A stretch of 41,443 bases of DNA from Nemertoderma westbladi (Eukaryota; Animalia; Xenacoelomorpha): the NCBI GenBank assembly GCA_032718475.1, contig JAUCBJ010008674.1, positions 1-41,443 of the forward strand, given 5' to 3'. The notes beneath the pieces were generated by a model. The model ran no database searches. It was not told the origin of the DNA and saw only the letters and a list, made by a program, of their open reading frames with translations. The translations under genes and the position numbers were made by a program. This document shows, one piece after another, positions 5,960 to 41,443 of this stretch (positions are counted from its first letter, which is position 1; each line of letters opens with the position of its first letter).

Positions 5960-6721
5960 AGCTCGGACAGTGGAAATGAGATCCTCCCAGGCTTCCCAAT
6001 TCTCCACTGTTGTTGTCGAATGTTCAAGTCTAGTTTTCATATCAAGGTGGTCTGTATATGTCATAGAGCCGGTAATCCATGGCTACGCTTTCCATGTGTT
6101 GGTTGCCAGAAAAGTAGACCTGGAATGACCCCATGTTTACTTACCCATCAGTTCCCACTGAAACTTAATGAATCTTAATCTTTGTAGAGAGTGGTTGATA
6201 CATTGTATCCTTAAGCTCGGCATTTGTCATGTGTTGTGTCCAGCTGATATTAAGGTATTATTATGGTAGCAACCATCAATTCGTTGTTCAAGTGATTTAG
6301 TCAGTGTCCAGGTCTCACCCCCGTATAAAAATACACTTTCCACTGTGGCTCCAAAGAACTTAGTCTTCAGGTGCCTTGAGAGATCTGATTTCCAGATGAT
6401 CTCAATTTTTGATAGAGCTACCCATGCCTTTGATTTCCTAACTTCTACCTCTTTTTTGCTGCTCTCTATCTATGACCCCCAAGATACTGGAAGTCGTAAG
6501 TCTTCCTGAGTTGATTACCAATTATCAATTGCGGTCAAGATTCAATCAAGCCTTTATATTCAATCCAACCTCTTTAGCAGCCCTCTCCATATTATTCAGT
6601 AAAGTTGGGCATCTGATGGTGTGTTATAGTGCAGGATGATGTCATCCGCAAAGTCAGTGTCCGTGATTGTAGTTGCTGGATATCTGCTACTTCTGAATTC
6701 TTGTAGTGTGACTCCCAGAAT
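5960..6721 (-). mobile_element. Degenerate 3' part of an RTE LINE, same family as 31819-35079
   Basis: Clear nucleotide similarity to 31840-32610 (e.g. CTCGGACAGTGGAAATGAGATCCT and CAAGTGATTTAGTCAGTGTCCAGGTCT). DFADD motif near 6640-6655. Confidence 0.88.
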
Positions 6722-7233
6722 CCGTAAGTCGATCCGTGGATCCGGAAGTCAGGTGAGGACCTTCGAATACGTAAGAGAAAGGCATGGGCAGCCTTGAATA
6801 GGCTTTCCAGGATTTGGAAGTCACAGAGAATTAATCGGAAACTTAACGTCCGATTATTTAGAGCAGCAGTAGTTCCAGTACTCCTCTATGGGAGTCCTTG
6901 CTGGGCTCTAACTGCTGAGGACACCAAATCTTTGTATGGCACATTCACAAGAATGCTACGCCGGGTTCATTGTGTCTAATACAATGCACACATCTCCAAC
7001 CAGACACTATATAACATTGGAAGTGTCTCATTGGTTCCCCCAAGCTTGACACTAGAACAAAGTCGCCTCCGCTTTGTAGGTCATTGCTTTCGCCAAACAC
7101 TGGCCTCGAAGATGCGGATGATCTAGCAAATTTCATGGGTGATAAGGAGTTGTGCCGGCGAAATTTTGTCGACAAGCCGGCACAGCATTCTTAAAAATGC
7201 AGCTGCAATGGAGCATGCCGATCCTAGTAGTAG
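6722..7233 (+). mobile_element. 3' fragment of a second RTE-type LINE family with a (TAG)n tail, nested in the minus-strand RTE
   Basis: Encodes KAWAALNRLSRIWKS..RLFRAAVVPVLLYGSPCW..FTRMLRR, the RTE C-terminus. Ends in TAGTAGTAG. The 3' end matches 29940-30060. Imperfect TSD GTGACTCC(C/T)AGA. Confidence 0.8.
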
Positions 7234-7409
7234 TGACTCCTAGATATTCTCCCTTCATCCATCCTTGCATAATCCAGTAAACATATGAATAGTTATGTAG
7301 GTTTGTTTTTGTAGTGTGAACCCCAGATCTTCTAGGTAGCAGTGTTTTGATCGATATGGATTTAACTTAGGATTATAATTTTGATAATTATAATTATTAT
7401 GTGTGTGTC

Positions 7410-7545
7410 TCGGTAGCGCAAGTATCTGAGCTATTGTTGATCTATTTGTTCGAAATCCATTTTGGCTCTTACGCAGCAGTTTCTGTATGTGAGGTCTAAT
7501 TCTATATAAAATATTTTCCTCCTTCTGCATCAGGTTGCAAATATC
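7410..7545 (-). mobile_element. RTE RT fragment
   Basis: ILYRIRPHIQKLLRKSQNGFRTNRSTIAQILAL, matching 32920-33020. Confidence 0.82.
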
Positions 7546-8972: not shown

Positions 8973-9546
8973 CAGTGGCGAATCCAGGGGGGGGGGGGGG
9001 GGGGGGGGGGGGTACGAGGCGACCGCCTGTTAAAAAGTAAAAGTTAAGTTATTAAAAAGTAAATAACGTTTTGGGTTATATTGTAAGTAGAGATAAATAA
9101 ATTGTCTAATTATATTATTTCTCTTTTTTCCAAAATAAGGCGACAACTAGGTGTATCTATTTATAAGAAAATAAGTTATGTATGTTTATTTTAAACAGAC
9201 ATCCTCAAAACAGCTTATAAATTACCAATCCCCCCCCCCCCCCCCCCCCCCCCTCCATTAAAAAGTATACAAAGTTATGTCTGGACATTATTGGAACAAA
9301 AGTAGAGGTAAATAGGCTGCTTATAATTTATCCCAAATAAGGAGATAACTAATAAAATAAGTTTTCCATGTTTAAATTTTGCGGTCCGACTTTTCAAATT
9401 CCCCAAACAGCTAGTCGTAATCCCTTCGCTTCTTCGCATTCAAATTGGACGATTCGAAATGGACAAGCCATCAACTCGTGATGGAAGTTGAGCCATGGAA
9501 GATAGATCTCGCATATGATTTCATGTTCTTTCCGCACTAGCCACTG
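8973..9546. mobile_element. Possible degenerate MITE-like non-autonomous DNA element
   Basis: Starts CAGTGGCGAATCCA followed by poly-G, has internal poly-C (about 9229-9252), and ends TCCGC(ACTAG)CCACTG, an imperfect inverted terminus. No TSD seen. Confidence 0.4.
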
Positions 9547-11245: not shown

Positions 11246-11287
11246 ATATAAAATATGGGGTAAAATATGACATTAAATTTAAAATGA
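11246..11287 (+). repeat. Left arm of a perfect 42-bp inverted repeat
   Basis: Exact reverse complement of 12566-12607. Confidence 0.9.
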
Positions 11288-12565: not shown

Positions 12566-12607
12566 TCATTTTAAATTTAATGTCATATTTTACCCCATAT
12601 TTTATAT
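12566..12607 (-). repeat. Right arm of a perfect 42-bp inverted repeat
   Basis: Exact reverse complement of 11246-11287. Confidence 0.9.
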
Positions 12608-12957: not shown

Positions 12958-13645
12958 AAATTATAAACATATATTAAAATATTACTATACCTATTTTAAA
13001 GTGACGATTTTTAGAGGTGGGCGCGGCGGAGTGTAGAATTCCATTACATGTTACCTGCAAATAAAATGAAGTGAAATTTGATACTTTTTGTATAGCTCTA
13101 TTAATAATTATTAATATTTATTCATTTGTGACAGGCACCACATATTCTTATATATGATTGTTTGTGAAGTGTGATTAGCACCTTATTAAATTGCGTTAAG
13201 TTGTTCCCTGGCACCATCCAATAATACAGTGTTCTGCTTTACAAAGTGGAAATAGCTGCAAAGGCTCTACCAAAACCATTCATGATTTAATGAATTCGTG
13301 ACTTTTAATGTCAATGGAAGCCTGACCGCCATCATCAGTGATAATGAACTAAACAACGTTGACCCCTTCCCTTCCAGTACCTTGGATCATTGATAAAGAA
13401 ACAGCAGAAAAAAACATAGAACTTAGGGCATGGATATGGATAGCTCTATCAAAAAGGTTCTCATGAACTTGTAGAGAGCCTTGTGCTGTCATCGTTTGAT
13501 TGGATAATATTTCACATATTGAATTGAACTAGCCTTTATGAATAATTGTAGAAAAATTCTCACCTTGCTCTGGGCTGGTGCTAGAGGTGACTGAGTAATG
13601 GTCTGGTTTCGGTATTATTAATAGCAGTATTTTTATTTTTCAAAA

Positions 13646-13748
13646 CTGGGGCATTTGTACCATAAATCTGGAGCATTTTTACCATAAAGTTGGAACATTT
13701 GTACCATAAAGTTGGAGCATTTGTACCATAAAGCTGGTGCAATTGTCA
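13646..13748. repeat. 22-bp tandem repeat (YTGGAGCATTTGTACCATAAAG), about 4.5 copies
   Basis: Directly visible. Confidence 0.92.
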
Positions 13749-13947
13749 TGTCCAGGATCCAGCTGATGTTTGAGTACTGCCCAAACAGTATTCAAATATC
13801 AACTTTTTTATCAATAGTAGTAATAATATTTTGTACTTTTCCTTCCAGTTTTCAAGATACGATAATGAGGATCCAATTTATAATCGACCCAAAAACAACG
13901 GCTTCATTCCTAAGCCGAGTAGCCGACCGTCGCCTGCTGGTCTCTTT

Positions 13948-15774: not shown

Positions 15775-16301
15775 GGAAGTTAAAGACGAAACTAGCTGAA
15801 TTTTCACCAAGATCCAGAACTATTGTTGTTGTTAACATATTAATGTTAATATTCAATCCACATATGAACCCCGATCAAAAAATAACTCGGCATATTATAA
15901 AAACAAGCCATTCCTGGAAATACTGACGACACAACTTACAAATCCTAAATACCGAGCACCCCACTAGATATAAAGCAAAAACAAGCTATCTTATAGACAT
16001 TTCCATAACCACCTCAAATAAAACAGATAACTACTATATTGAATGCAATACATTTCCGGCTGACTCTTCCGATCACGAATTTATAGTACTGAAATCCAAA
16101 CACGAAACCAGTATATACACAGTTAAATTCCGCGATCTTTCACATTTTAATGAATCTGATTTTCTTAATGAAATTAGTAAAATTGACTGGACGAATAATT
16201 ATTTTACAAGCAATGTAGATTATGTTTATGACAACTTCGAAAATAAATTAAATGAAATATATGATAACCATGCACCAATTAAAACTAAACGCATACGAGC
16301 C
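15775..16301 (+). mobile_element. CR1/L2-group LINE ORF2, 5' portion (end of APE), interrupted by the LTR element
   Basis: HPTRYKAKTSYLIDI..SSDHEFI..FRDLSHFNESDFLNEISKIDW..DNHAPIKTKRIRA. The frame continues after the LTR element once one TSD copy is removed. Confidence 0.82.
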
Positions 16302-17558
16302 TGTAAAAGCTTCTGTGGGATATAACTGGCCCTTTTGCTTCGCAATCCAGTTTCCCCCCAGGCGCTGGAATACTCTAAAAAGGTTCTCTAACTGTACATA
16401 TATTCCCCTCGCCCGCAAGGTACCGTTACAGGTGTTTTAACGGACATAAAAGTCATTCTGCTATATACGTGTTTTAGCGGACATGGTAAGGCAAAAAACC
16501 CGCAATATGGCAAATACTTTTACACAGCTTAGCCGTGATGATTCAGATTACGACATCTAGCAGCTGGTTGCTGACATGGAAACAGCCATTGGACGCGTGG
16601 TTCTTTGTTTGGCTTGAGCCAATCAGGGCGATTTTTCCTGTCGACGTGTAGCTTTTCGGCCGATCATAAAGAGAGTGTTCAGTCTTACAGTTTTTACTGA
16701 TACTTTGTTGTTATTGCTGTCTAAGCCAGAAACACCGGCTCTAGAGTTAATTCTTTTCATACTTTAAGAAGAAACATTAGTAGGCTTAAATTATAGAGCG
16801 TATGACTGTTATCAGTCAAATCCATTCACAATTCAATACTTTGTTGTTATTACTGTTCAACATACATTATTATACTGCTATTTACTGTTGTGTTTGGTTG
16901 AATATTATTTGGAGAACATATATAAAGAACCCAAATTTCCCAATTTTCTTGATACACTACAGGTTAGAGAGACGGGTTATATATATAGCGATTGCGACTT
17001 ATATTGTTGTGGTTTGTAGTGAATTTAATGCTATTTGATAAGCACTACATTGGTCCGTTGCTATTCCCTTTATATATGATAAAATACATTGACGGGCGGC
17101 AAATTAATGAGCAGTATTGTGTGTTACCGGTAGTGTGCATGATTGTGACCGATAACTAAGCATTTCCTAAAGAATGCGACTCATACGTGAATCATAAGCC
17201 TTACCGACTTACCGTTGTGATTGGTATAAGTCATATCTCTGTTTACTTAGATAGAGCGCCACGTCCTAAAAGGAACTGTTAATATTTCCCGAAAGTGAAT
17301 AATATTAGTCAGAAATTAATTATTAATGATCAATCGAATAATACAATACCGTAAGCTTCACTGCAATAATAATCTAAGCCCTCAGAATCCAGTCTCCCGG
17401 GATTATCCAGCGGGTGAATGGACGCGCACTAGGCTGGCTTCTGCTAATGTTGTGTTTATTGGTATTAAATATTGTCATTTTCTAGAGTCGATTTATAAAC
17501 CAAAAGACATATAAATTTTGGCAGGTTAAACTGCTAAAGGTCTTCAAAAGCGCGTACA
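16302..17558 (+). repeat. 5' LTR
   Basis: TGTAAAAGC...GCGCGTACA. About 4 substitutions relative to the 3' LTR, found by eye. Confidence 0.97.
16587..16685 (+). promoter_or_regulatory. Candidate LTR core promoter (CCAAT boxes and an Inr-like TCAGT)
   Basis: Reverse CCAAT (ATTGG) near 16588, AGCCAATCAG near 16617-16626, TCAGT near 16679. Motif match only. Confidence 0.4.
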
Positions 17559-19440: not shown

Positions 19441-22400
19441 ATGGCTGACACAAGGCAAACTCTGTCAGATAGTCTCCTAGAAACAACAGCCTGTTTCTCA
19501 GATCAAAGTGTAGAGAATCCCAGACCGAGGTCTGAAACCCCTCATACTGTAAGAAGGGCAACCCCTGCAGTGGTTGTGACAGAACCTAGGTTGGTAGAAA
19601 AGATTTCGCAATTTGCGAAGTTAGTGAAGCGCCGTTGGTCTGCCATAGGCACTCGGGCCCAAGTCAAGCGGGATCAAGAAGAAGCTATAAAACAGCAGCA
19701 ACCTCCTAGCCAAGAACCTGGTCCTCAGCGGTCCGATAGCTCCAGTAGTTCGGATACTGTTGAGCGGACGCCAGAATGCGGAGCGAAGATGGCGGATACG
19801 GTTTATGATGGGCAGCCAGCCTGTGGGGAATCAACCGACGCCACTTCTTCTCAAGTGGAAAGTGAGGTGGAAAGCGAAGTGGAAAGTGAGGTGGAAAGCG
19901 AAGTGGAAAGCGAGGTGGAAAGCGAAGTGGAAAGCGAATTAACATCAGCAGAGAAGCCGCGAACTAGAGATGCTATCGACATTTATTTGTCCGACTATCA
20001 GCGATTCCTAGGAGACGAAGAGTTGAGGAGACGGCTGTCTGGACTTTCCCCTAATAGTGAAGGAACCAAGCTTGTGTTGGACTCAATCGATGCCGAAATG
20101 TTAGCTGCAAACCAAGCTGAATGTGATGAAAAACTCCGCCTCACTAGAGTCCGAGAAGAGCAAGTAAAGAAAGAACTGATAGAGAGAAGAAGGGTAGCAG
20201 CAGCAAAAGCGGCAGAAGCAGAAGCAGAAAGAAAAACGGCGGAAGCCGAAAGAAAGGCAACAGTGGCAGAAGCAGAACGGAGAGCGTCTGAGGAGACTAC
20301 CCAACTGGAGTTGGAAAATCTGCAAGAGACACAAGACAGTATAAATAAACAGTTTACTGCTAATCAAATGCAGATGATGAGAAAATCTACTCCCAGGCGC
20401 CAGGGATACACATCCTCGGAGGAAGGCGATACTACCGATCCTGAAGGCGGAGGAAATAGATCTCGTCTAAGCAGGCGTAGAAAAACATCTCACCGTCATA
20501 AACTGCCTGATTTGCCCCCAGCTGTCAGAAGACAACTAGCTAGCACAGACTTAGGTAGTACAGAACCCACAGAACAAATTATTCAGGTCACAAGACTCCC
20601 TACAATAGTTGATGAGCCTGAAATAATTAGGCCTGTCGTTCCCAAAGTCACTTCTGTGTTAGAGACCCCTGTACTTCCAGAGCTTAACTCTAAATTCCCT
20701 TTACATAGTACTACACTGCCTGTACCCGGTGGAACAGTCCATGCAAATACCCCTGTCCAGATAGCAGAGAGAGAAATCAATAATTTGTCTCCCGTCGTCC
20801 CGCGTCAGCCCGCTACTATGTTGGCGACTCCCGCTTCGGCGGTTGAGTGGGTAGAGGAGGGACGGCGGGGGATGAATCTCCTGCTAGGACAGATGCAGGA
20901 GACTGTCCACCAACTTAAGGGAACAGTGAGGGAAGGTAGAGCAGAGTTGCAAGAAGTGCAGCAAAGTATCGCACTAGAACGCGACAAATTAGTCAATATC
21001 CAAAAGGGCATACCAATACCCCCTGTAACATTGTGTCAACCTGTTAGGTCTGAAGTATTACATGCGCAAGGTGTGGAGCCTACACGCATCTATACTGCTA
21101 GTGAAGTAGAAACTCCTATAGCAAACCCTATTAAGGGTGATTATAGACCTGTTATTAATGATATTCCCTATAGACCTGATAATGATCCGAGAAATTTATA
21201 TACCGATAATTCGATATTAAATAACACGATGGCCCAAGAAAGCTTTACGCGTCAGATGGCTAGAACAGAAGCCCGCCAAGCGGTCAAAGTGGGAGAGATC
21301 GTCAAATTCAATGGAGATGAGATGAAATGGTTACCTTTCAACGAATATTACAAAGATAGCATACAGAACTCTGTACTATCTAACGGAGAGAAACTTAGAT
21401 TCCTCATCAAGTGCTTGGAAGGACCTCCCAAGTTAATGGCGTTAAAGTTTATTGGACATCCAGATGGATTAAGACAAGTTTGGGATACATTAAACATCAG
21501 GTATGGTAACAAGGATAACATAGCTAAGTATTTGTATGCAAAATTAGTAGCCCCCCGACACTTCCTTAGTAGCGGGATTATAGAGTTTTCCGATGAAATT
21601 CAAGAGATCTGTAGACAACTGGACTGGTTAGGTAAGTCGCATGAATATCAGAGTTCCATGGTCATTGGAGCCGTAGTCTCTACTTTACCAAAGGGTGGAG
21701 TATGTACGCGCTGGGACAAGAAAGTGTTGTACATGAATGAACAACAACGCCGAAGCCCTACCATGGCTGATCTCATGTCCTTCTTAGATAGTGAAGTAAA
21801 ATTACAACTCATAAGGCAGTCCAGAGAGAAAACATCGGAAAATAAGGTAAGTGAGAAACCCGTTTCTAGGAGAAGGATAATACCAGTGTGTTATACTGAC
21901 GACGGCGAAAGCCAAGCTTCTCAAGAAGAGGACAGCGGGAAAGACACCGAACGATCTTACTATGACAACAAGACCTATAAAGACGTAAGTAAATACAAGT
22001 CTCGAACCAGTGACAGGAGAGAACAGGTAACAACAACTCCTCCTACGTCTCCTAAGAGAATTCACGGAAGAAAGCCCGAAGAAAGAACGAGAGTGCAGAA
22101 CGTTAACCAAGTTAAGGTGAGTAACATCAAACCAAAATGTGCGCTGTGCGACGGGCCCCACCGTTTGAGTGCGTGTGCAGAATTCCTAAAGAAATCCATG
22201 GCAGATAGACGTGGAGTCCTGTGGGATAAGCGGTTATGTTATAACTGTCTCAGACGCGGACACCAGCGGCGAACCTGTTACTCTGACGCAAGGTGTGCTA
22301 AGTGCGGCGCGAAACATCATAGCCTGTTGCACACGGAATTCGAACGAAACAGCCCGAGTCAGGTAAGTGAGCCCAAATCACATGTCCAATTCAGTGATGT

Positions 22401-23571
22401 GAACGACACTGACCAAAGTTCAGAGTGGGAAGGATTCTATACGGACGAATTCTCCGATGCCAACGAATCCTGTTATCTAATAAATACCGCAGTGTATCGA
22501 GCACTTACTTACGAAAAGGACATCAACGATGAGTTTCCCCCAACCACCTTTGACAAACAACCATCTTGGAAAGCTCCAGCTTCCAACGTAGGAATCAGAG
22601 AATTTCCTGTAGTTCAAGTAAGAGTTCACGGTCTTAACAAAAGCTACATAGTGAACGCCCTCCTTGACTCCGGCAGCACAGGAACATTCATCGATCAAGA
22701 ACTAGCCGAAGATATCTTTGCTGGACAACCCAAGTTCCGGACTAAATTAAATATGTCAGGAATTATGCAGGTTTGGAAATCTACCCTAACGGCAGATTAC
22801 TATGTAGGTGTGTTGTCCACCCCCCAGGATAAGTTAGGAACACAAGCGATAAGGTCAGTAAAAATGGTGGCTATAAAGAACTTTGCTACTACTCAAGCAG
22901 AACCTTATAACTGGGACGAGGACGAGTGCATCCAACATCTTGAGATACCTCGATTCCAAACCGATTATCCTGGAGTGCAAATCCTCATCGGCCAAAACGC
23001 GCATGAGGCGCTCGAGACATTGGAGAAACGGCCTGCTCAACCGCAGCCATTACAAACTTATGCGGTAAGAACTAGAGTAGGTTGGTACTTCACTGGCCCT
23101 TCCCGTAGAACTCTCAAAGAGAGATTACCTCAACAACAGGTATACCAAGTAAAGGAATGGGAAGTGGAGAGCAGTGATGTGGACGATCCAACTGAGGGAA
23201 CACCATACTCCTCAGATAATGACGATATTAACTCCAATGTAGATCAATGGAGACATTGCCTTGGGACGATTAATCCAGCCGACATTGCTTCCAGAGGAGC
23301 AACTCCTCAAGAACTGATAGATAATCCAGGCTGGTTAGGTGGATCCGACTTCTTAAGTAAAGAAGAAGAAGAATGGCCTCCTCATCTTACCACGGCGGAG
23401 GTTAGACAGGCCAAGGGAGCGGAGAAAGTAACACAACAACTCAATCGCCCAGCTAGTCGTTTATGTTTACTGGAAAGAGACCAAAAACTGTCCGGAAACT
23501 ATGGAAGGCAAGATACTCTTCCTACGACCACTTCCCTAATCCGACAAATATCTAGGGACTCTATAACGTAA
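19441..23571 (+). CDS. gag: BEL/Pao Gag-aspartic protease polyprotein with an RNase H C-terminal remnant; RT and integrase absent
   Basis: Capsid-like KFNGDEMKWLPF..EKLRFLIKCLEG..LNIRYGN. BEL triple knuckle CALCDGPHRLSAC, CYNCLRRGHQRRTC and CAKCGAKHHSLLH. Protease ALLDSGSTGTFI..ILIG..RTRVGW. QWRHCLGTINPADIASRG..WLGGSDFL..EEWP. No YxDD or integrase core. Confidence 0.93.
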   Translation: MADTRQTLSDSLLETTACFSDQSVENPRPRSETPHTVRRATPAVVVTEPRLVEKISQFAKLVKRRWSAIGTRAQVKRDQEEAIKQQQPPSQEPGPQRSDSSSSSDTVERTPECGAKMADTVYDGQPACGESTDATSSQVESEVESEVESEVESEVESEVESEVESELTSAEKPRTRDAIDIYLSDYQRFLGDEELRRRLSGLSPNSEGTKLVLDSIDAEMLAANQAECDEKLRLTRVREEQVKKELIERRRVAAAKAAEAEAERKTAEAERKATVAEAERRASEETTQLELENLQETQDSINKQFTANQMQMMRKSTPRRQGYTSSEEGDTTDPEGGGNRSRLSRRRKTSHRHKLPDLPPAVRRQLASTDLGSTEPTEQIIQVTRLPTIVDEPEIIRPVVPKVTSVLETPVLPELNSKFPLHSTTLPVPGGTVHANTPVQIAEREINNLSPVVPRQPATMLATPASAVEWVEEGRRGMNLLLGQMQETVHQLKGTVREGRAELQEVQQSIALERDKLVNIQKGIPIPPVTLCQPVRSEVLHAQGVEPTRIYTASEVETPIANPIKGDYRPVINDIPYRPDNDPRNLYTDNSILNNTMAQESFTRQMARTEARQAVKVGEIVKFNGDEMKWLPFNEYYKDSIQNSVLSNGEKLRFLIKCLEGPPKLMALKFIGHPDGLRQVWDTLNIRYGNKDNIAKYLYAKLVAPRHFLSSGIIEFSDEIQEICRQLDWLGKSHEYQSSMVIGAVVSTLPKGGVCTRWDKKVLYMNEQQRRSPTMADLMSFLDSEVKLQLIRQSREKTSENKVSEKPVSRRRIIPVCYTDDGESQASQEEDSGKDTERSYYDNKTYKDVSKYKSRTSDRREQVTTTPPTSPKRIHGRKPEERTRVQNVNQVKVSNIKPKCALCDGPHRLSACAEFLKKSMADRRGVLWDKRLCYNCLRRGHQRRTCYSDARCAKCGAKHHSLLHTEFERNSPSQVSEPKSHVQFSDVNDTDQSSEWEGFYTDEFSDANESCYLINTAVYRALTYEKDINDEFPPTTFDKQPSWKAPASNVGIREFPVVQVRVHGLNKSYIVNALLDSGSTGTFIDQELAEDIFAGQPKFRTKLNMSGIMQVWKSTLTADYYVGVLSTPQDKLGTQAIRSVKMVAIKNFATTQAEPYNWDEDECIQHLEIPRFQTDYPGVQILIGQNAHEALETLEKRPAQPQPLQTYAVRTRVGWYFTGPSRRTLKERLPQQQVYQVKEWEVESSDVDDPTEGTPYSSDNDDINSNVDQWRHCLGTINPADIASRGATPQELIDNPGWLGGSDFLSKEEEEWPPHLTTAEVRQAKGAEKVTQQLNRPASRLCLLERDQKLSGNYGRQDTLPTTTSLIRQISRDSIT
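19855..19938 (+). repeat. Coding 12-bp tandem repeat (GTGGAAAGYGAR)x7, encoding (VESE)7
   Basis: Directly visible, in frame within gag. Confidence 0.95.
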
Positions 23572-24107
23572 TAACATATGGAGTGGGCGTGTGACTATAT
23601 CATTTTATATTTGTTTTTATTTTATATTTATGTATGTATTATTATGTAATTTTATTATAATCGTTTTCTTTAATTTTATTTAGTAGAATGTTATTTTAGT
23701 GATTATTTAGTAGATTAGTGCAATATATTAGTGTTTATTACGTATGTAATTACTTATAATATATATTTAGTGCGACGGCGAGAAATAATTATTTTTCTCT
23801 TTCCTTACTGTCCGTATCATATTATAAATACGTGACTACAGTAAGATGAAATGTCCGTACTTATTAAAGTACAATAAAGCCACTACTATATTCAAGTATT
23901 ATTGGTAGGCAGAGTATTAGGAATGCAAAGTTCAGATCCTCGTGTCTCGGCTAAACCAAGCTCTGGGTAGACCTTGGAAACGACTTGCCTCTTCACACTG
24001 ACATTGCTTCGTGCGATATTGCTCTTCTACCTTATATTAAATAATACATATAGTAGCGTGATGTCCATATAACAGTAGCGTAAAACGCAAATAAATCTGT
24101 TAAACTT

Positions 24108-24390
24108 TTGACCATCTGTAATTCTAGTCGATTAAGATATCGCGGCACCCACCGATATACTTGAAAGACAAATTCTAGAATCAGTGGTTAACGTCCCCAG
24201 ACAAGTTCTGGAATAAATCGGTGCCCATCTTAAATATTAATTTAATATTTATTAAAATCTGTAAAATTCAGATCCTTTAACAATTCTAGTCGATTAAGAT
24301 ATCGTAGCACTTACCGATATTCTTAAAAGACAAATTTCATAGAATTAAGGATCCTATGTTCCCAGACCCGCTCTGGAATCAAATTGTGTC
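24108..24390 (+). ncRNA. Two tandem copies (162-bp period) of a putative structured cis-RNA module: long stem-loop, short hairpin and possible pseudoknot
   Basis: Pairings read by eye. The outer stems differ in sequence between copies but still pair. Confidence 0.6.
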
Positions 24391-24761
24391 AATTTTAACA
24401 TCAAATAATAAAATTCACGGGAATAAATTTAAATTCATACATTAAATGAATTTCATAAATTGTCATTTTGTACAATTTATAACATTCCCAAAATTCCATT
24501 AATTAATAGATCATGGGAGCGGAGATTCATCCTATTGAGTGTATTAGAGTGCGAGAATCTCCAACATATAGTCAATAGCCGATAAAATTAATAAAATCAT
24601 GCATAAAGAGGATATTGACAATTAAAGAATTATTATTAAATAGCATCCCAGATCTGTATGCATGAGAATTACCCTAATTCTACCGCTAGCATTCCATAAT
24701 GTCACCATAACAACACCCACGCTAGAATTAGAAGCAAGTTAAGAAAACAATAGAAAGCTTG

Positions 24762-25158
24762 TCACATTGCATAGCATAGAGAATACATAGCACGCTGTTA
24801 GTATCCAAGGATACACAGTAATAACGTGACATTCTGGAAGGCACTGACTAACGGACAAATGGCCTGTATGTGTACAATTGGTGACAGTTGTGTGGAATTT
24901 GTGCGTTTGTAGGTGAATGTTACTGCTAAGGTGTGTTTACAGTAGCTAGTCGCAATTGTGAAAGTAACCCAACTCTCCTATAGAAAGAACCTAAAGTGGA
25001 TTCAAGCCTTTGGGACGGACAGTGGAGTGACTTGTGCCGGTTATCGTTGTCGTACTGTTGCTACATGTTGGCGTAAATACCGCGACAACGGTACATCGGC
25101 GCTGAGGATCCCACTGTCCGGGGGCAAAGAGAAGTAGGCAGCGACGCCCGCTCGCCTA
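24762..25158 (+). ncRNA. Putative multi-domain structured RNA (IRES-like) upstream of the accessory ORF
   Basis: Nested helices with many G-U pairs, a GUGA tetraloop hairpin (24873-24892), a 105-nt hairpin (25016-25120) and a hairpin at 25135-25158. Confidence 0.5.
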
Positions 25159-25199
25159 AATATAAACTTATTTGATATTAATAAACTCAGATAGCAGAT

Positions 25200-26488
25200 A
25201 TGACGGAGTTGATAGAAGATGATCTTGGTATCAGGGAGCGATATACTCTACCTTTACAAGCATTTGTGGATAGCTTGATACGCGGTGAAACCGATCCAAC
25301 CATTACGGAGGACGATGGTCGTTATATCGAACCGCCGATGTCCCAAGAGCAACTTACGCGTGAATTGGACTATCGAAAATTCACCGCTCGCTATACGCAT
25401 CGTAATGGTACGTATATGGACTTCCTAACTACCAGCCATCCTATCGGTTTACATGATACGGACGATGAAGACACCGAAAGGGAAATGGTTCTATTTAAAT
25501 ATCATACCCAGCGGAGTCGGAACGATAAACCGAGAATAGATCACGAAAATTCTATTCGTAACAGACTGGGAGGACGAACCAGTATGCCTAGAATCTGAGG
25601 AGATTCAGCCTGTCGCGCCCGGAGCAGCGACAACGATTGCATCCTAGAATGGTATCAAGGTCCACAGTGTCTCACTGCGTACGATTATCGACATGCCAAC
25701 TATGTTTCTAGGCAACGTTGTCGGTTATGCGCATCGAGAGACCACGATACGCCAATGGACACCAACGTCCGCTGTTCCTATTTCAAAGAACAACCGACTA
25801 TGGAAATTTATTGCGCATATTGCAGACTCAATAACCTGCATATCTTTGCGGTTTGCCCTCAATTTATGACTCGATGTCACCATTGTCAACTAAAGGGACA
25901 CGCCAGTTTCGATTGCCCTTTTAATCGCGATTTGGAAAGCGTGGATGAAATGATCACACTACGTTACATTAGAGCTTGGGAAGCGAAGGCTGATTTACAT
26001 CGTGATTCGCGCCATCGCTATTATCCTGGACGCGCTTACGAAGGAATTTATGCGTTCCATCCTTATCTATTCGCTTCTGTCGAACAGAAATCACGCATAT
26101 CGAGTTACAGGAAGTATATCGACGGCCTTACGAACACCGAGCCCGTGAACGCGAGTTGGAAAGGACCATTAAACCCCGGAGGTTTCTAGCTGCCTATGGT
26201 CCACCCACGGCCCTCGTTCGGACCACTCGTAAGGGACCCGTAAGAGCGGCTGTCTTAAAACGCGCTCTCAAAGCCGTTAGACCCCTCTCCCCCGACGTTG
26301 ATGTCAATCAACCCGGCACTTCGACTGGCGGATACACCGACCATAATCCTACACCCTCTGATGCAATCATATTGCACCCTTCACCCAGGAGTTATAGCCC
26401 TCCTTGTAAAGTGGCTCGCCCCAAAGAGAAAAGGACTCTGGCTAGCTTTAAAAAACTGCGTAAACGCCGTCCGCGCAAGAAAGACTAA
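25200..26488 (+). CDS. Accessory ORF of the LTR element: protein with three zinc-knuckle-like motifs and a basic tail, interrupted by one TGA and one -1 frameshift
   Basis: ORFs 25200-25598 and 25755-26189 share a frame separated only by TGA at 25596-25598. Motifs CRLCASRDH..C, CAYCRLNNLHIFAVC and CHHCQLKGHASFDC. The overlapping -1 frame ORF 26156-26488 ends in KKLRKRRPRKKD. Confidence 0.65.
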
Positions 26489-26558: not shown

Positions 26559-26566
26559 GGGAGCGG
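26559..26566 (+). other. Short polypurine tract (GGGAGCGG)
   Basis: Purine-rich run directly abutting the TG of the 3' LTR. Confidence 0.75.
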
Positions 26567-27823
26567 TGTAAAAGCTTCTGTGGGATATAACTGGCCCTTT
26601 TGCTTCGCAATCCAGTTTCCCCCCAGGCGCTGGAATACTCTAAAAAGGTTCTCTAACTGTACATATATTCCCCTCGCCCGCAAGGTACCGTTACAGGTGT
26701 TTTAACGGACATAAAAGTCATTCTGCTATATACGTGTTTTAGCGGACATGGTAAGGCAAAAAACCCGCAATATGGCAAATACTTTTACACAGCTTAGCCG
26801 TGATGATTCAGATTACGACATCTAGCAGCTGGTTGCTGACATGGAAACAGCCATTGGACGCGTGGTTCTTTGTTTGGCTTGAGCCAATCAGGGCGATTTT
26901 TCCTGTCAACGTGTAGCTTTTCGGCCGATCATAAAGAGAGTGTTCAGTCTTACAGTTTTTACTGATACTTTGTTGTTATTGCTGTCTAAGCCAGAAACAC
27001 CGGCTCTAGAGTTAATTATTTTCATACTTTAAGAAGAAACATTAGTAGGCTTAAATTATAGAGCGTATGACTGTTATCAGTCAAATCCATTCACAATTCA
27101 ATACTTTGTTGTTATTACTGTTCAACATACATTATTATACTGCTATTTACTGTTGTGTTTGGTTGAATATTATTTGGAGAACATATATAAAGAACCCAAA
27201 TTTCCCAATTTTCTTGATACACTACAGGTTAGAGAGACGGGTTATATATATAGCGATTGCGACTTATATTGTTGTGGTTTGTAGTGAATTTAATGCTATT
27301 TGATAAGCACTACATTGGTCCGTTGCTATTCCCTTTATATATGATAAAATACATTGACAGGCGGCAAATTAATGAGCAGTATTGTGTGTTACCGGTAGTG
27401 TGCATGATTGTGACCGATAACTAAGCATTTCCTAAAGAATGCGACTCATACGTGAATCATAAGCCTTACCGACTTACCGTTGTGATTGGTATAAGTCATA
27501 TCTCTGTTTACTTAGATAGAGCGCCACGTCCTAAAAGGAACTGTTAATATTTCCCGAAAGTGAATAATATTAGTCAGAAATTAATTATTAACGATCAATC
27601 GAATAATACAATACCGTAAGCTTCACTGCAATAATAATCTAAGCCCTCAGAATCCAGTCTCCCGGGATTATCCAGCGGGTGAATGGACGCGCACTAGGCT
27701 GGCTTCTGCTAATGTTGTGTTTATTGGTATTAAATATTGTCATTTTCTAGAGTCGATTTATAAACCAAAAGACATATAAATTTTGGCAGGTTAAACTGCT
27801 AAAGGTCTTCAAAAGCGCGTACA
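26567..27823 (+). repeat. 3' LTR
   Basis: Near-identical direct repeat of 16302-17558, followed by TSD GAGCC. Confidence 0.97.
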
Positions 27824-29750
27824 GAGCCAGCAATAATATCAAAAGCAACTCGTACAACATATCACCATGGTGGAACTCAGAACTATCATCCCTAAATATT
27901 GAAAAACAGCAAAAACTAATCAGGTGGACACATTCAAAAAGTGAAGGTGACTTTGCAGACAATAAAACAATTACAAATAAATTTAACTCACTAAATAAAA
28001 ATCTAAAGAATAAATATATAAAATCAAAACTAAATGATGCAACTGCAATAAAAGACAAATGGGCAATATTAAATAAAATCACTAATAATAATAAAAAAAA
28101 CCGAGCAAACTATTTCGTCCAACTATTTCGTCCTTAATTAATCACGCAACAGGCTCTATTATTTATAACATATTACCAATGGCGAACCTACTTAATGACG
28201 CATATCTAAATATATGGGTAACTTTCAAAGCACTGGCTATATAAAAAGACATAGTACCGTACTGTTAACTCTAGTTTCAGCTTTAAGAATGTAACCGAAT
28301 TAGAAATATTTGAAATAATATATAAATTAAATACAAATAAACCAACTGGTCCGTCAATATTAAGTCAAAAATTAATAAAACTAATTGAACCGCATATTAC
28401 CCTACTACTAACTCACATCACAAACTTACTTTCCTTCTCGGCTAAAATCATCCTTTATTACTTACGCCTGTATTCAAAAAAGGGTCTCGAGATGAACCAA
28501 CTAATTATATATTCTAATAAATAATCTATTTCTGTCAACATTCGAAAAAATAATTGAAACAGTCATATATCATCAAATTACAAAATATCTACACAACAAT
28601 AAAATACTACAAAATAAGCAATTTGGTTTCAGAAAAGGGTATTCTACAGCAGACGCCGTTTTATTTGCAACTGAGTCTTGGAAATGTGAACTTAACAAAA
28701 AAAAAAATTGCAATTGGAGTCCTAGATCTCTCTAAAGCTTTCAACTCTCTCCAGCACGACATTCTTCTAGATAAATTAACAGAAATTGGATTCCAATCGA
28801 ATGCTGTTGCACTTATTAAAAGTTATCTTTTCGACCGCCCGCAAGGTGTAAAATTAAGTAAAATATTCTCACACTGGAAAATTTGCAATAGGGGTATACC
28901 ACAGGGCACCAAACTTGGACCATTATTGCTTTTAATATAATATGTCAATGACTTTGCAAATCAAATAAATTTGGAAACTATTCAATATGCTGATGACAGA
29001 CACTCTTATATATTGCTCGCACCCAAATCCACATACTGCAGTAAAACAACACTAAACACTAAACAAAAAAAACAACATATATTGCGTCAGCTATTCGCAA
29101 CACTACTGTAGGTATGAAATTAAACTCAAATAAAACAGAACTTATTGTTATATCCCCATTAAAGAGAACAGACGAATTAAATAATCTACATCTTGTGATT
29201 AATAATGACATAATTCAACAATCAACTACAATTAAATATTTAGGCATCATCATAGATAACAGATTATCATGGAAGGACCAAATAAAAACTACTACATTTA
29301 AAAATGGCAGCGGCTGCATCCACAATACGCCAAATAAAAGGACAATTGCCAATCTCTACGAAATTAATATTATACAAATCTCTAGTCACGCCGTACCATA
29401 ACTACTGTAGTATCTTAACAGCGACATATAAAATACTCACGGATATAAGGAACTACTGTACAAAATGGATAAGATTCAAAATTACGCACTTAGGCTAATC
29501 TATAACAAAAAAATACGAGAAACTTCAAGAACAGAACTAAGACAATTAGCTAGGATCCCGCAATAAAAGTTCCAAAATCAACGAACAGATTTGGTCACAA
29601 CTCTTTTATTATCACATGCATAAAATCATGGAACAATTTACCTAATAACATTCGTAAATTTGCACTCCATAATAATTTTTTATCACTATTGGAAAATTAC
29701 TACATAACGCAATATGAAAGAAAAGCAGTAACATAATTACTTAACTAAAC
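27824..29750 (+). mobile_element. CR1/L2-group LINE ORF2, 3' portion (RT), heavily frameshifted
   Basis: SPWWNSEL, VLDLSKAFNSLQHDILLDKL, GIPQGTKLGPLL, QYADD, IKYLGIIIDNRLSW and IKSWNNLPNNIR. Confidence 0.88.
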
Positions 29751-31370: not shown

Positions 31371-31499
31371 AGTAAATCAAAGAGAGGGAAAAGCCCACCC
31401 CACCCCCAACCCCCCCCCCCCCCCCCCCACCCCTTCTTAACCTCCCACTTTATCTGCCCCACCCCAACCCAAAGGAGCACACAGGATTGATGAAAGGCA

Positions 31500-31783
31500 G
31501 GTTCCACCTTGGTGTAGTGGTTGCATTGAATTCACATCTCCTGTAGGTCGTGGTTTCGATCCTCACATGGGCCAGGGCAGTTTTCGTTTCGGCACGAATG
31601 CTTTAAAGGGACCAGCCAGGGCTCATCTCTGCCTTGCATCCTTAAGTGGTAGCTAAATGAGTACTAGAGTTTCCTCTGGGGAGTAAAGTTCTGGGGGGAC
31701 CGCACTGGAAATAAGTCGTCAGACTTTGTGCGTAATCCCTGGCCAAGCGGCCGAAGAAAATTTACTTTACTTTACTTTACTTA
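31500..31783 (+). mobile_element. Full-length tRNA-derived SINE with a (TTTAC)n tail
   Basis: A-box TGGTGTAGTGG, B-box G(T)TTCGATCC and a central GCCTTGCATCCTT..TAAATGAGTAC motif resembling conserved SINE core domains (from recall, unverified). Near-identical copy at 33410. Confidence 0.9.
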
Positions 31784-31818
31784 GGTATTATCAGGAAATT
31801 TGTGTTTTAAAAGTAATA

Positions 31819-34800
31819 CTACTACTAAGTCGAGCGAACTCGGACAGTGGAAATGAGATCCTTGAGATCCAGGCTTCCCGATTCTTCATAGTTGTCGCAA
31901 ATTCGTTTCTCCCAAGTTCAGTATCCCTTTCAAGTTGATCTATATATGTTATGGCCGATCGTCCACGACTACGCTTTCCATGAGTTGGTTACCAGAAAAG
32001 TAGATCTGGTATGACCTCGTCTTTACTTCGCCAGCAGTGCCCACTGAATCTTAATCTGTGTTCACGGAGGGTGGTTGATACAGGTGGTATTGTACCATAA
32101 AGCTCGGCATTTGTCATGTGTTGTCTCCAGCTGATGTTTAGGGCTGCCCTTAGTAGTCTTGTGTAACAACCATCAATTTGTTGTTCAAGTGATTTAGTCA
32201 GTGTCCAGGTCTAACCCCCGTATAAAAATACACTTTCCACTGTGGCTCGAAAGAACTTAGTCTTCAGGTGCCTGGGGAGATCTGATTTCCAGATGGTATC
32301 CATTTTTGATAGAGCTACCCAAGCCTTTGCTTTCCTAACTTCTATATCTTTTTTGCTACTCACCTTCCTTAGTTGATTATTATCAATGGTTGTCAAGTTT
32401 CCATTAACAGTAAAAGTCATGAATTCGGTCTTGGTAGCATTTATATGCAATCCAACCTCCTTATAGCAGCCCTCTCCACTTTATTTAGTAGAAGCTGTGA
32501 ATCTGCTAGGGTATTAGAGAGCAGGGCGATGTCATCCGTAAAGTCGGTGTCTGTGACTGTAGTTGCCGGATATCTATTACTTCTGCGTTCTTGAAGTGTG
32601 AATCCCAGAACTTCACCATTTGTGGCCGTCCTCATTGCGTAATCCAGTATAATTACAAATAGTAATGGCGCCAATGTGTCACATTGCAGTACGCCAGTCA
32701 GGATTGAGAAAAACTCAGTTTCACCATCTGGTGAGAGTACCTGTGCTTCTGTGTCACAATATAACAATCCAATGCCAGCAACGGTTACTTCTGGTATTCC
32801 ATAAGCTCTTAGGATTTCAAGCATTTTACCTCTATGGATGGAGTCGAATGCCTTCTTGAAGTCCACAAAAGTCATGACTGCGGGGAGATTCTTTGACTTG
32901 ATTCCTTCAATCAGTCTCCGCAGTGCAAGTATCTGAGCTATTGTTGATCTACTTTGTCAAAATCCGTTTTGGCTCTTACGCAGTAGTTTCTCTATGTGAG
33001 GCCTAATCCTATATAGAATCATTTTATTGTATATTTTGGCAGCTACCACAAGCAGACAGATCCCACGATAGTTTGTTGGTATACCGAGGTCTCCTTTCTT
33101 GGGGAGAGGCTTTAGTTGACCTTTAGTCCAAATTGGAGGAGGCTTTTCCCCTTTTAACATCCAGTTGCAAACATTCAATAATGGTCTGTTTAGCACTGGA
33201 AATAAGTCGTCAGACTTTGTGCCTAATCCCTGGCCAAGCGGCCGAAGAAAATTTACTTTACTTTACTTTACTTAGGTATTATCAGGAAATTTGTGTTTTA
33301 AAAGTAATACTACTACTAAGTCGAGCGAACTCGGACAGTGGAAATGAGATCCTTGAGATCCAGGCTTCCCGATTCTTCATAAAAAAAAGTAAAGTAAAAA
33401 AACAAAAAAGGTTCCACCTTGGTGTAGTGGTTGCATTGAATTCACATCTCCCGTAGGTCGTGGGTTCGATCCTCACATGGGCCAGGGCAGTTTTCGTTTC
33501 GGCACGAATGCTTTAAAGGGACCAGCCAGGGCGCATCTCTGCCTTGCATCCTTAAGTGGTAGCTAAATGAGTACTGGAGTTTCCTCTGGGGAGTAAAGTT
33601 CTGGGGGGACCGCACTGGAAATAAGTCGTCAGACTTTGTGCGTAATCCCTGGCCTAGTGGCCAAAGAAAATTTACTTTACTTAGCACTCCTGTTTTCCAT
33701 ACCTCCGCTGGAATTTCATCTAATCCACTCGCTTTATTATTGGACATGCTTTTAATGCTTCTTTGGAGTTCGGCAGGTGTAAAGTCCCCTGTTTCTATAG
33801 GTAGTGTCTTGTCATATATTTTCCTTGTAGGGCTGACCTCGATGTTTGGTGGCTGCCCAAGCAAGTTGCTGAAGTGATTTTTCCACTTCCCCACACGTTC
33901 TTCGGGACTATCGGCTTTGAGGCGCCCCTTTGCACAACTTTTCCGGCCAGATTCCTCAATCACAGTTTGCCAGGTAAGTCTTAATTATTGCTGTATGTGA
34001 GCAGTTGTAATTGCTTCAATTTTATCCTGTATGTACTTTTCCTGGCTGATGTTGTAGGCCAATTTAAGATCATCCTTAGCTCTCTCAACCTTGTTAATGT
34101 TTTCGGTTGTTGGTTGTTCGGTTTTTACTTTGTAGGCTATCTTTAAGATCTTCTCTCTTACAAGTAACCTCAGAGTTTTGCCATGGCACATACTGTTTTC
34201 GTTTGGGTTTCTGGGGGATATGCCTCTTAGCTGATTCCTTTGTGGACTGGTCTTCATCCATTGACTGAAGTGCTTCAAAGCGGTTTTGAACTTCTACTGT
34301 GTAAGCATCCTTTACTGCATTGTCAGTTCTGAGTTTCTCCCAGTCATAGTTGATTTGCTTGCTTGTCCTGGGTTTGCTGGCTCTCAAACTGAGTCTGATC
34401 TCTGCAGTCACAATTATGTGGTCCGAACCAATTAGGTTGAACGAGCTGTATGCCTCGCAGTTGATGATGCTGTTTCTCCACTTTTTGTTTATAAGGATGT
34501 AATCCAGTTGTGCTTTGGTTCCATTACGGTATTGAAAGGTCTATAGCTTCCCCTTACTCTTTTCGAATGTGGTGTTTGTTGGTATCAATTCACATTCTTC
34601 CATTAGGTCTAAAAGTAAGTACCCATTTCTATTAGAACTGGTGTTATAAGTGTAACCCTTGATGTCTTCTGGGCCAATTTGAGCATTCAGGTCATTGCAT
34701 TGCAATGACATTGTGTTTCGGAATGTCCTTTATAAGTCCAGTCAGATCTTCATAAAACTTGACTGCTTGTTCTGGCTCTGAGGCATTGGTTGGACTGTAG

Positions 34801-40255: not shown

Positions 40256-40499
40256 AAAGCTTATCTACTTATTTTGTTTCTACCTATTTACCACCCAGTT
40301 GCTTGTGGCTTTGATATTCTTTGATATTTATTGTTAATTCTTAACGGCAATAAACTGATAATAATAAATAGAGGCAGATCAATGGAAACTCATATTAACG
40401 TGCGTCATCCAGGAAGGATAAGATTGCATGCTGATCCACTCCCTGAGTGGCTGATTGTAGATTGAGGTCGAATGTTTCCACCTCAACTACTGGACAATA

Positions 40500-40900
40500 A
40501 TAGAGGGTGAATAGCACACAATCAGAACCACATTAGGAAACTTCTTAGCCAGTCTTTCAGAACATGACAAGAGCCCTTAGGATGATGCACTTGGTGATTT
40601 GGTCTATTTCTTTGAATCTGCATCTGCAATTATTGGATTCATCAATAGACCAATTCAACCATTTCCACTGACATCTGCTGAAGGGTGAGCATTGAACAAG
40701 GCAACCACACCTGCTCATGTCCTTCACCAAACGTCAGAACCTTGCCAATCTGCCCAGTCTGCATTCAGAGCTCTTTAATTCCCAAAGTTTATCTGCCAGT
40801 GCTATTAGGTTTAGTATCGTGACCTGTCTCATATACACCAATAGCTGGGTTGGTCAGTATGGAAAGAGAGAGTAGCCTCAAACTCAAGAAACCCTCACCT
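40500..40900 (-). mobile_element. Degenerate copy of the RTE-like APE region at about 4000-4450
   Basis: Shared TAGCACACAATCAGAACCAC.TTAGGAAACTTCTTAGCCAGTCTT.CAGAACAT and GAGAGTAGCCTC blocks. Confidence 0.8.
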
Positions 40901-41443
40901 ATCACCCCCCCCCCCCCCCCCCCCCCTCTCTCCTTGTGGTTATCCAGGTGACAGGCAGCCATCGGAAGATAATTGGAACCTGTGATGCCATTTGTGCCGT
41001 GTTTTTCCACTGAAAAAGAGTAACTGAACATTAACTTTACATATAATACAGAGTGGGGGTTGAGCGTGTTCAGCTATCTGTTCAGCTCAAATAACATAAC
41101 CTCGCTTTCTATTTCCTGACCAGCCATTATTGGTAGACTATCATCTGCTTGTAGACGATTTGTAGACCACTGTCTATATACCACTGAGTATGGGTCCTTA
41201 TTCCAGGACCCAGGGGGTCCTAATTACAAGACCAAGTGATGCCCTTTGTAAGAGAGCCTATGTATGTCGCCACATGTGCGACCACATTTATGTATGCTGC
41301 TTGGAGGTAATATCCCAGAGGGTGATGGAGGCCGTGGAATTTCTCGCTACCTAAATGCAAGCCATATTTGCATTGCATTGTTGACCAGCTACTTACTTAT
41401 GAGATAAACAAACAAAATGTTCCAGAATATGGTGTATTTATAA

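Follow-up and report, generated by a model that had tools for sequence, protein, structure and literature searches.

Tandem stem-loops as a probable cis-acting RNA structure in a non-autonomous BEL/Pao-type retrotransposon of Nemertoderma westbladi

The DNA analysed here is contig JAUCBJ010008674.1 of Nemertoderma westbladi (assembly GCA_032718475.1), taken whole as a window of 41,443 nt (positions 1 to 41,443, forward strand). Within it an 11.5-kb long terminal repeat (LTR) retrotransposon encloses a two-unit tandem repeat at 24093-24416, with a period of 162-165 nt, and each unit carries a module built of a long stem-loop and a mini-hairpin. These tandem stem-loops have probably been kept by selection as a cis-acting structure in the element's RNA. 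The structure is kept on the sense strand in the 3' non-coding region of a retroelement and therefore points to a cis-acting RNA signal; the LTR-retrotransposon context makes export and packaging the natural candidates. Both functions had been proposed in an earlier sequence-only reading of this DNA, and the context gives them sense, export being kept as a tentative proposal and packaging as a doubtful one. The form of export signal predicted, with some reserve, is a post-transcriptional element on the sense-strand RNA resembling the retroviral constitutive transport element (CTE) or the direct repeats (DR) of Rous sarcoma virus (RSV).

The two repeat units are invariant at 108 of 176 aligned columns. 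Their likeness is concentrated in a 55-nt core (24120-24174 and 24282-24336; 89% identity, spacing 162) and in a 41-nt block (24193-24233 and 24358-24398; 73% identity, spacing 165), and a 23-mer word of the core occurs twice in the window against 0.00 occurrences expected. The 162-nt repeat was detected by seed extension, and Tandem Repeats Finder (minimum score 30) gave no report of it. A third, degenerate module was not found upstream or downstream, the best local alignment scoring 27 against a shuffled maximum of 30, and a 17-nt match at 23924-23940, considered as a further module, was not significant.

The coordinates of the modules and of the surrounding element are collected in Table 1. 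All of the helices named in the sequence-only reading are present in the sequence. In hairpin 1 the outer helix pairs TTGACCA (24108-24114) with TGGTTAA (24185-24191), including one G.U pair, and is followed inward by CTG (24116-18) with CAG (24182-84), ATTCTA (24121-26) with TAGAAT (24176-81), GTC (24127-29) with GAC (24167-69), TTAAG (24132-36) with CTTGA (24160-64; one U.G), and the apical helix of ATATCG (24137-42) with CGATAT (24153-58). Thirty of the 31 pairs have probabilities of 0.71-1.0. The earlier helix list is to be amended at G24127, which it used in two helices and whose pairing is split, 0.54 with C24169 and 0.46 with C24175. Hairpin 2 has the same inner stems within a different outer helix, GATCCTT (24271-77) with AAGGATC (24347-53), a perfect 7-bp inverted repeat around the palindrome GGATCC. 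Here 26 of 28 pairs have probabilities of 0.91-1.0, with G24304-C24315 at 0.62 and A24299 split 0.51/0.48 between T24321 and T24320.

Table 1. Positions of the tandem modules and of the features of the enclosing retrotransposon in the window.
Feature	Position	Strand	Basis
Target-site duplication GAGCC, left	16297..16301	.	identical 5 bases directly outside both LTRs
5' LTR, 1257 nt, TG...CA ends	16302..17558	+	direct repeat of 26567-27823
Open reading frame (ORF) 1, 1376 aa: N-terminal extension, BEL/Pao gag (DUF1759), zinc knuckles, Pao-type aspartic protease	19441..23571	+	
Repeat unit 1 (module 1 and linker)	24093..24254	+	unit alignment; repeat families D1, D2, D8
Long stem-loop 1, 84 nt, 31 bp, 10-nt apical loop	24108..24191	+	minimum free energy (MFE) fold
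GGCACC in apical loop 1 (loop 24143-52)	24144..24149	+	
AAGACA, 3' arm of hairpin 1, at internal loops	24165..24170	+	
Mini-hairpin 1, CCAGA-CAAGT-TCTGG, 5 bp	24197..24211	+	pair probabilities 0.87-0.96
GGTGCC, complement of apical loop 1; candidate partner in a pseudoknot or loop-tail contact	24220..24225	+	
Repeat unit 2 (module 2 and linker)	24255..24416	+	unit alignment; repeat families D1, D2, D8
Long stem-loop 2, 83 nt; core shared with stem-loop 1, outer helix different	24271..24353	+	
AAGACA, 3' arm of hairpin 2	24327..24332	+	
Mini-hairpin 2, CCAGA-CCCGC-TCTGG, 5 bp	24362..24376	+	
ORF2: 132 codons, in-frame TGA 25596-25598, then 196 codons	25200..26189	+	
Polypurine tract GGGAGCGG, adjoining 3' LTR	26559..26566	+	
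3' LTR	26567..27823	+	direct repeat of 5' LTR
Target-site duplication GAGCC, right	27824..27828	.	

The predicted folds are considerably more stable than those of shuffled sequence. On the + strand hairpin 1 has a free energy of -24.8 kcal/mol (z -4.9), equalled by none of 500 dinucleotide shuffles, and on the - strand it reaches -19.6 kcal/mol (z -1.7), with 32 of 500 shuffles as good; it favours the + strand on account of its two G.U pairs. Hairpin 2 folds at -21.3 kcal/mol, with z of -5.4 on the + strand (0 of 500 shuffles as good) and -4.3 on the - strand. A sliding scan of 23500-25300 on the + strand places the module windows (z -4.5 and -3.7) among the three most negative, and hairpin 1 scores -4.5 on + against -0.6 on - in that scan. 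The sole other + value comparable to the modules in the scan belongs to the window 24400-24499 (z -3.75 on +, -3.2 on -), and a small hairpin is found downstream of the modules at 24448-24487, with arms GAATTTCATAAATTGT and ACAATTTATAACATTC that are 88% complementary.

The sequences flanking the shared core add to this picture. With the core fixed and the flanks shuffled, an equally stable fold was obtained in 1.25% of 2000 trials for module 1 and 0.7% for module 2. The flank pairs of the two modules are unlike in sequence, yet each closes its hairpin (P ~0.01 each). The sequence-only reading described these differences as compensatory changes, a term that holds only loosely, because the outer helix of copy 2, while closing the same core, is out of register with that of copy 1 (shifted by +1 in the 5' arm and by -4 in the 3' arm) and none of the 20 consensus pairs is changed on both sides when the two paralogous modules are aligned and folded together (MAFFT/RNAalifold). 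One-sided changes, of the type G-C/G-U or U-A/U-G, affect 2 of the 20 pairs.

A further feature distinguishes module 1. The hexamers GGCACC, in its apical loop, and GGTGCC, downstream of its mini-hairpin, each occur once in the entire 11.5-kb element, and when the AT-rich 51 nt downstream were shuffled 5000 times, a 6-bp complement to loop 1 appeared once. The pseudoknot claimed earlier is plausible for this copy; for module 2, where a weaker loop-tail pairing had been claimed, at most 3 Watson-Crick bp can form (P 0.999). Module 1, with its loop-tail complement, appears to be the main unit, and module 2 would then be a partly relaxed duplicate.

Variation among copies of the family provides the most informative indication that pairing is maintained. 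The family is extremely abundant in public sequencing runs of one organism: in run X1, 18,589 contigs match 23600-24900 and 5,863 match 24040-24420, with a summed word depth near 1e6, and close relatives occur at low depth in three other organisms (X5, X6 and X7). A common variant was defined as another letter in at least 10% of the X1 depth, and the two modules as 248 nt, of which 55.6-60.5% are paired in MFE models of the window copy. Among the 14 common variant sites in the modules, 13 are unpaired (P 2e-4 to 5e-5), lying in apical loops, internal loops, a bulge, linkers and a mini-hairpin loop. The bias persists when T24320 is treated as paired, following the sequence-only reading (P 0.002), when neighbouring sites are merged to 11 events (P 0.002-0.013), and within the 55-nt core, where all five common variants are unpaired (P 0.006). 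Mini-hairpin 2 shows the same pattern, its loop varying (24369, 99%; 24368, 9%) and its stem hardly at all (24375, 4%).

Comparison with the surrounding DNA indicates the direction of this bias. Among the variants listed, 3 of 138 paired module sites are affected against about 121 of 920 in the rest of a 1301-nt stretch (P 3e-5), a comparison that is approximate in that the module and background run sets differ by one run; unpaired module sites carry listed variants at a background-like rate (19 of 110, P 0.24). Because paired sites fall below the background and unpaired sites equal it, the stems are spared and the loops are not hypermutated. This sparing would reflect selection on RNA pairing in the amplifying lineages. 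Module 1 is also kept across organisms, with hardly any change in the three others: an X6 contig is identical over its 123 nt (24108-24230) and has six events in the 68 nt upstream (P 0.002), and an X5 contig has one loop-base difference in the module and six events in the same upstream stretch (P 0.009). In both, the linker between the modules has ~16 inserted bases, and the module lengths are unchanged. The X5 contigs may derive from RNA, but this is a guess and they are not taken as a sign of expression.

Cross-mapping between the modules was considered as a source of the variants and rejected, the variant letters in the shared core of module 2 (24292, 24310, 24320, 24334 and 24336) not being those of module 1. 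Variants 24278, 24360 and 24368, outside the shared core, do match module 1 letters; 24143 C>T occurs without other module-2 differences, which counts against cross-mapping. Single-module forms also occur, with joints 24217>24384, 24233>24403 and 24234>24406 that skip 166-171 nt, at depths of 45-178 against ~1e6. Given this very low depth they are read as rare deletion derivatives and were rejected as an ancestral state. A degenerate form of the 23-mer gave 0 loci in metagenome contigs and 0 in viral contigs.

The earlier claim that structure is conserved over sequence, and points to a functional cis-acting RNA, thus gains genuine though indirect support (stems spared at 13 of 14 sites, unlike flanks that close, a sense-strand bias, and module 1 kept across organisms) and is borne out in part, given the lack of any column-wise double change between the modules. 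This lack weighs against a selected structure, as do several features of the family variation. None of the common family variants is a linked double change, and 24276 T>G, at 25%, breaks a pair of the outer stem with no listed change in its partner. The 14 variant sites represent few events among related copies, and the structure used for the paired and unpaired calls derives from this same copy. The common variants are moreover unevenly divided, with 2 sites in module 1 and 12 in module 2 (P 0.011), and module 2 is without a loop-tail complement.

These observations bear on the alternative that the modules have no selected function, in which a palindrome was duplicated in a master copy, its stems were made or kept by template-switch mutation, and the variation reflects chance or a mutational bias to unpaired bases in RNA or cDNA. 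Tandem repeats are common in the non-coding parts of LTR elements, as such an origin would have it. The lack of covariation between modules fits it as well, and the conservation across copies and organisms may be simple youth, since there are few masters, the three organisms are closely similar and the LTRs differ at only 4 of 1257 positions. Template switching in replication is reported to yield perfect stems and multi-base "compensatory" changes in one event (PMC8794818), and a single switch can likewise restore a broken stem. Module 2 could owe its 7-bp outer helix, perfectly paired around GGATCC, to such an event. Nevertheless, the non-coding DNA around the modules is ~5-fold more variable than the paired sites and about as variable as the unpaired ones, so that heavier mutation of unpaired bases does not by itself explain the pattern. 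The common variants are of mixed types and carry no single editing signature, both unlike flank pairs close their hairpin, and hairpin 1 depends on G.U pairs, which would not be favoured if the palindrome were made at the level of DNA. An absence of function is considered unlikely, and a selected RNA structure the better account.

The hairpins could also serve as precursors of small RNAs (a microRNA-like cluster or hairpin small interfering RNAs) or, at the DNA level, as paired sites for a transcription or chromatin factor. A pair of ~31-bp hairpins at a spacing of 162 nt, conserved in the arms and variable in the loops, would suit either role, hairpin 2 folds about equally on both strands, and de novo microRNA hairpins are reported to arise by template switching (10.1101/2023.04.19.537475). 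The internal loops, with 6-8 nt on one side only, are large and asymmetric, which speaks against a small-RNA precursor. Such loops make poor Drosha and Dicer substrates. The dependence of hairpin 1 on G.U pairs of the sense strand likewise argues against a purely DNA-level role, and the whole proposal appears improbable.

Searches of Rfam bear on the remaining suggestions of the sequence-only reading. At the gathering score the whole window gave 0 matches, and in 23850-24650, on both strands and with E up to 10, the only rows were two at chance level, snR79 (a snoRNA, E 1.9, minus strand) and RNAIII (E 6.9). The Rfam scan that had been called for was thereby carried out and placed the hairpins in no curated family. 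The statement that no hammerhead or hepatitis delta virus (HDV) core is present agrees with the lack of any small self-cleaving ribozyme match on either strand, and the companion idea of an unrecognised ribozyme finds no support, no ribozyme family having matched in this region. That no Rfam model matches the hairpins also counts against reading them as a CTE/DR-like element.

The same scan returned no family of exonuclease-resistant RNA (xrRNA), the class to which the suggested nuclease-blocking element would belong. Such a module would combine a stem-loop with a loop-tail pseudoknot, halt 5'-3' exonuclease digestion so that a subgenomic RNA from the 3' part survives, and could stand in tandem as in flavivirus 3' untranslated regions. 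The tandemly duplicated stem-loop with a downstream complement to its loop is in keeping with this arrangement, as is the position of the modules upstream of a 3' ORF and the 3' LTR. The plant-virus coremin xrRNA is described as a first hairpin with 4 bp and a YGAD or YGNNAD loop, a spacer and a second hairpin (PMC10520033); the nearest look-alike here, GTC-CCCA-GAC at 24193-24202, fails the YGAD rule. Module 2 is without a pseudoknot, and among the literature matches listed no report of an xrRNA in a retrotransposon was found. A nuclease-blocking function is very improbable. The tandem stem-loops, the pseudoknot between loop and downstream sequence and the location in a 3' non-coding region do recall flavivirus xrRNAs and dumbbells and the coremin elements; in contrast to these, the present modules have no three-way junction, do not follow YGAD and can form the pseudoknot in one module only.

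The nature of the enclosing element is of direct relevance to the two remaining functions. Its LTRs have 4 mismatches in 1257 positions, and its sense strand is the + strand, since the polypurine tract GGGAGCGG abuts the 3' LTR on that strand. ORF1 matches Pfam DUF1759 (E 7.8e-12), and all 12 of its database relatives are BEL/Pao polyproteins of ~25% identity, PF05380 being present in 12 of 12 and PF03564 in 11 of 12. In tblastn comparisons, residues ~140-678 of the relatives (gag-protease) align to 21295-23187 and residues ~1200-1250 to 23230-23379, so that ~520 residues, covering the reverse transcriptase (RT) and RNase H, are skipped by an in-frame deletion. Residues ~680-1200 and all those past ~1250, including the integrase, have no counterpart anywhere in the window (tblastn). 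With the RT/RNase H and integrase counterparts absent, the element is an internally deleted, non-autonomous BEL/Pao-type LTR retrotransposon. Being defective, it depends entirely on cis signals in its RNA.

ORF1 begins with a ~620-aa extension N-terminal to gag, acidic and coiled-coil-like, that has no Pfam match and contains a 12-nt tandem repeat (19853-19938) encoding ESEV repeats. Downstream of ORF1 lie 1.6 kb of AT-rich (34% G+C) non-coding DNA that contain both modules, and no ORF of at least 40 aa spans 24108-24390 on either strand. The modules are 2.2 kb upstream of the 3' LTR and ~800 nt upstream of ORF2. The second part of ORF2 has a canonical zinc knuckle (C-X2-C-X4-H-X4-C); its Pfam match to zf-CCHC_3 (E 0.003) is under the cut-off, and no Pfam family is above it. 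An Atlas search gave a best score of 0.85, to be taken as a lead only, as all leads were below 0.9, and no protein relatives were found at E<=0.01 among 163 candidates of near length. ORF2 could be a read-through or decayed accessory gene. ARAGORN reported 0 genes for a tRNA-like or Pol III cassette.

An element without RT and integrase that has nevertheless been enormously amplified must have its RNA recognised in trans. This suggests a second role, in which the hairpins would be a packaging or dimerisation handle for the Gag or nucleocapsid of an autonomous BEL/Pao partner, or for the element's own zinc-knuckle proteins; it is a role of fairly low probability. The evidence for a kept structure (fold z, closing flanks, spared stems) applies to it equally, and the zinc-knuckle ORF lies ~800 nt downstream of the modules. 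It is similarly doubtful, though conceivable, that GGCACC, the GC-rich loop sequence, makes an intra- or intermolecular contact with GGTGCC, its sole complement; each is unique in the element and their match is unlikely by chance. If a spliced mRNA serves ORF2, the modules could be confined to unspliced RNA. Retroviral packaging and dimerisation signals lie in the 5' leader and gag region, which counts against this role, and those of Ty1 are likewise reported from the 5' leader/gag region and not 3' of the ORF (PMC5454406). The apical loop is not self-complementary, and module 2 is without the loop-tail pair.

Export is the tentatively favoured function of the selected structure, packaging or dimerisation coming next and stability or small-RNA roles making up the remainder. 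The export and expression elements of simple retroviruses are known signals at such a 3' position. According to the proposed mechanism, the stem-loops would act as a cis signal on the element's sense-strand RNA, and a CTE/DR-like element would bring its unspliced RNA together with a host export factor. The units of the retroviral CTE have a conserved AAGACA in an internal loop and are reported to take one Tap-p15 each (PMC4330393). Both hairpins have AAGACA at an equivalent point of the 3' arm, where it lies between helices and unpaired A's flank it, and this matching internal-loop position is, speculatively, a candidate NXF1-type receptor site; two hairpins would then offer two candidate NXF1 sites. 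In hairpin 1, A24165, A24166 and A24170 are predicted unpaired and the hexamer has no common family variant; in hairpin 2 it has rare variants only (24328, 1%; 24332, 0.7%), and positions 24334, 24336 and 24338, just 3' of it, vary at 16-30%. In its strongest form, that of a BEL/Pao element with a constitutive transport element of its own whose two AAGACA hairpins recruit host NXF1 directly, the prediction is an unlikely one.

Confidence in the CTE/DR reading is low on three grounds. AAGACA is no commoner in the window than the background (24 sites on both strands, 25.8 expected), and the search for it was post hoc; its GAC is predicted to be paired; and the two-fold symmetry of the CTE is absent. 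More specifically, the chance of the hexamer in one 84-nt hairpin is ~2-3%. The GAC is predicted to pair with GTC at probabilities of 0.54-0.99, so that only part of the hexamer is in a loop. Each site belongs to its own hairpin, the two standing in tandem with the same orientation, and not to a two-fold symmetric single hairpin. The modules, moreover, are 2.2 kb upstream of the 3' LTR and ahead of ORF2, not beside the LTR, and recognition of an AAGACA loop by host NXF1 is a speculative assumption.

The remainder of the window is largely composed of mobile-element copies. A tandem repeat of 30-35 nt (AACCTATTACCATATACGTACG...-type) forms two arrays (1-515 and 2693-3136, 23 copies in total) on either side of ~2.2 kb of DNA of higher G+C; these resemble satellite DNA or the repeated termini of some other element. 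A perfect 42-nt inverted repeat (11246-11287 and 12566-12607, arms separated by 1278 nt) resembles the terminal inverted repeats that bound a small DNA transposon, and a 22-nt tandem repeat (AAAxxTGGxGCATTTGTACCAT) is present in 5-6 copies at 13620-13751. Dispersed repeats of 80-99% identity pair 3896-4447 with 40404-40899, 6055-7517 with 31941-33024, and 31499-31890 with 33193-33682; within them a 274-nt pair (97%) and a 189-nt pair (99%), 1.5-1.9 kb apart, may be the LTRs of another small element. Homopolymer runs of C or G, ~20-28 nt long, are found at 8990-9012, 9226-9250, 31400-31430 and 40905-40927, some of them beside repeated element fragments.

A defective BEL/Pao member at very high copy number, with spared stems, offers a ~120-nt candidate signal for export, packaging or stability. 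Among the literature matches listed, no cis-acting RNA signals of BEL/Pao elements were found described. If the export reading is true in its strongest form, the Belpaoviridae would have in these modules their first described cis-acting export element. NXF1 hijacking via AAGACA loops would then have arisen outside retroviruses, whether convergently or from an ancient common source, and the rise of a defective element to tens of thousands of copies would be partly accounted for. Should the AAGACA lead hold, invertebrate retrotransposon biology would be linked to the NXF1/CTE pathway of simian retroviruses; should it fail, the modules are still a clean case of tandem duplication and closing-helix replacement in the RNA of a mobile element.

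Comparison with known systems places the modules among several partial likenesses. Elements of the LARD (large retrotransposon derivative) type are also defective LTR elements that are amplified in trans and keep a long non-coding internal region. Conserved RNA structure is reported in them. They are plant Ty3/gypsy derivatives without an ORF, whereas the present element is of animal BEL/Pao type and keeps gag-protease. The LTR retrotransposons of invertebrates are described as needing a dedicated export route for their unspliced genomic RNA, and the Caenorhabditis elegans element Cer1 shares with the present case, on the export reading, special export of unspliced RNA in an invertebrate LTR retrotransposon; its route depends on an element-encoded protein, CERV, made from a spliced mRNA, and no cis RNA element comparable to the hairpins is described in the available text (PMC10309623).

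The RSV direct repeats are two structured copies of ~100 nt in the 3' part of the genome that are reported to promote cytoplasmic unspliced RNA and to bind NXF1 and DDX5 (PMC7551171). They resemble the present modules in copy number, approximate size and 3' location; unlike the modules, which are adjacent, they flank src, and their likeness in sequence was judged by the Rfam scan alone, with no match, Rfam including a dr1 model. As for the CTE, the hairpins share with it an extended stem-loop (84 nt and 83 nt here) in the 3' RNA of a retroelement, outside gag-pol coding sequence, and, less surely, two copies of a unit with AAGACA at an internal loop (PMC4330393, PMC4174252). The CTE is a single hairpin with two loops and two-fold symmetry, in contrast to two tandem hairpins here, in which GAC of AAGACA is predicted paired, the likeness is limited to the hexamer and the host element is BEL/Pao, not a retrovirus; NXF1 binding by the present hairpins is putative. 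A 100-nt stem-loop with an AAGACA loop in murine leukemia virus (MLV) pol is reported to raise Gag production only as 4-8 tandem copies, an effect that is lost on mutation of AAGACA (PMC4174252). Although no curated family matches the present structure, a structured cis element in the 3' region of a retroelement is of a known kind, and the MLV gamma-CTE, with its 100 nt and -26.5 kcal/mol, resembles the present stem-loops in both size and energy (PMC4174252).

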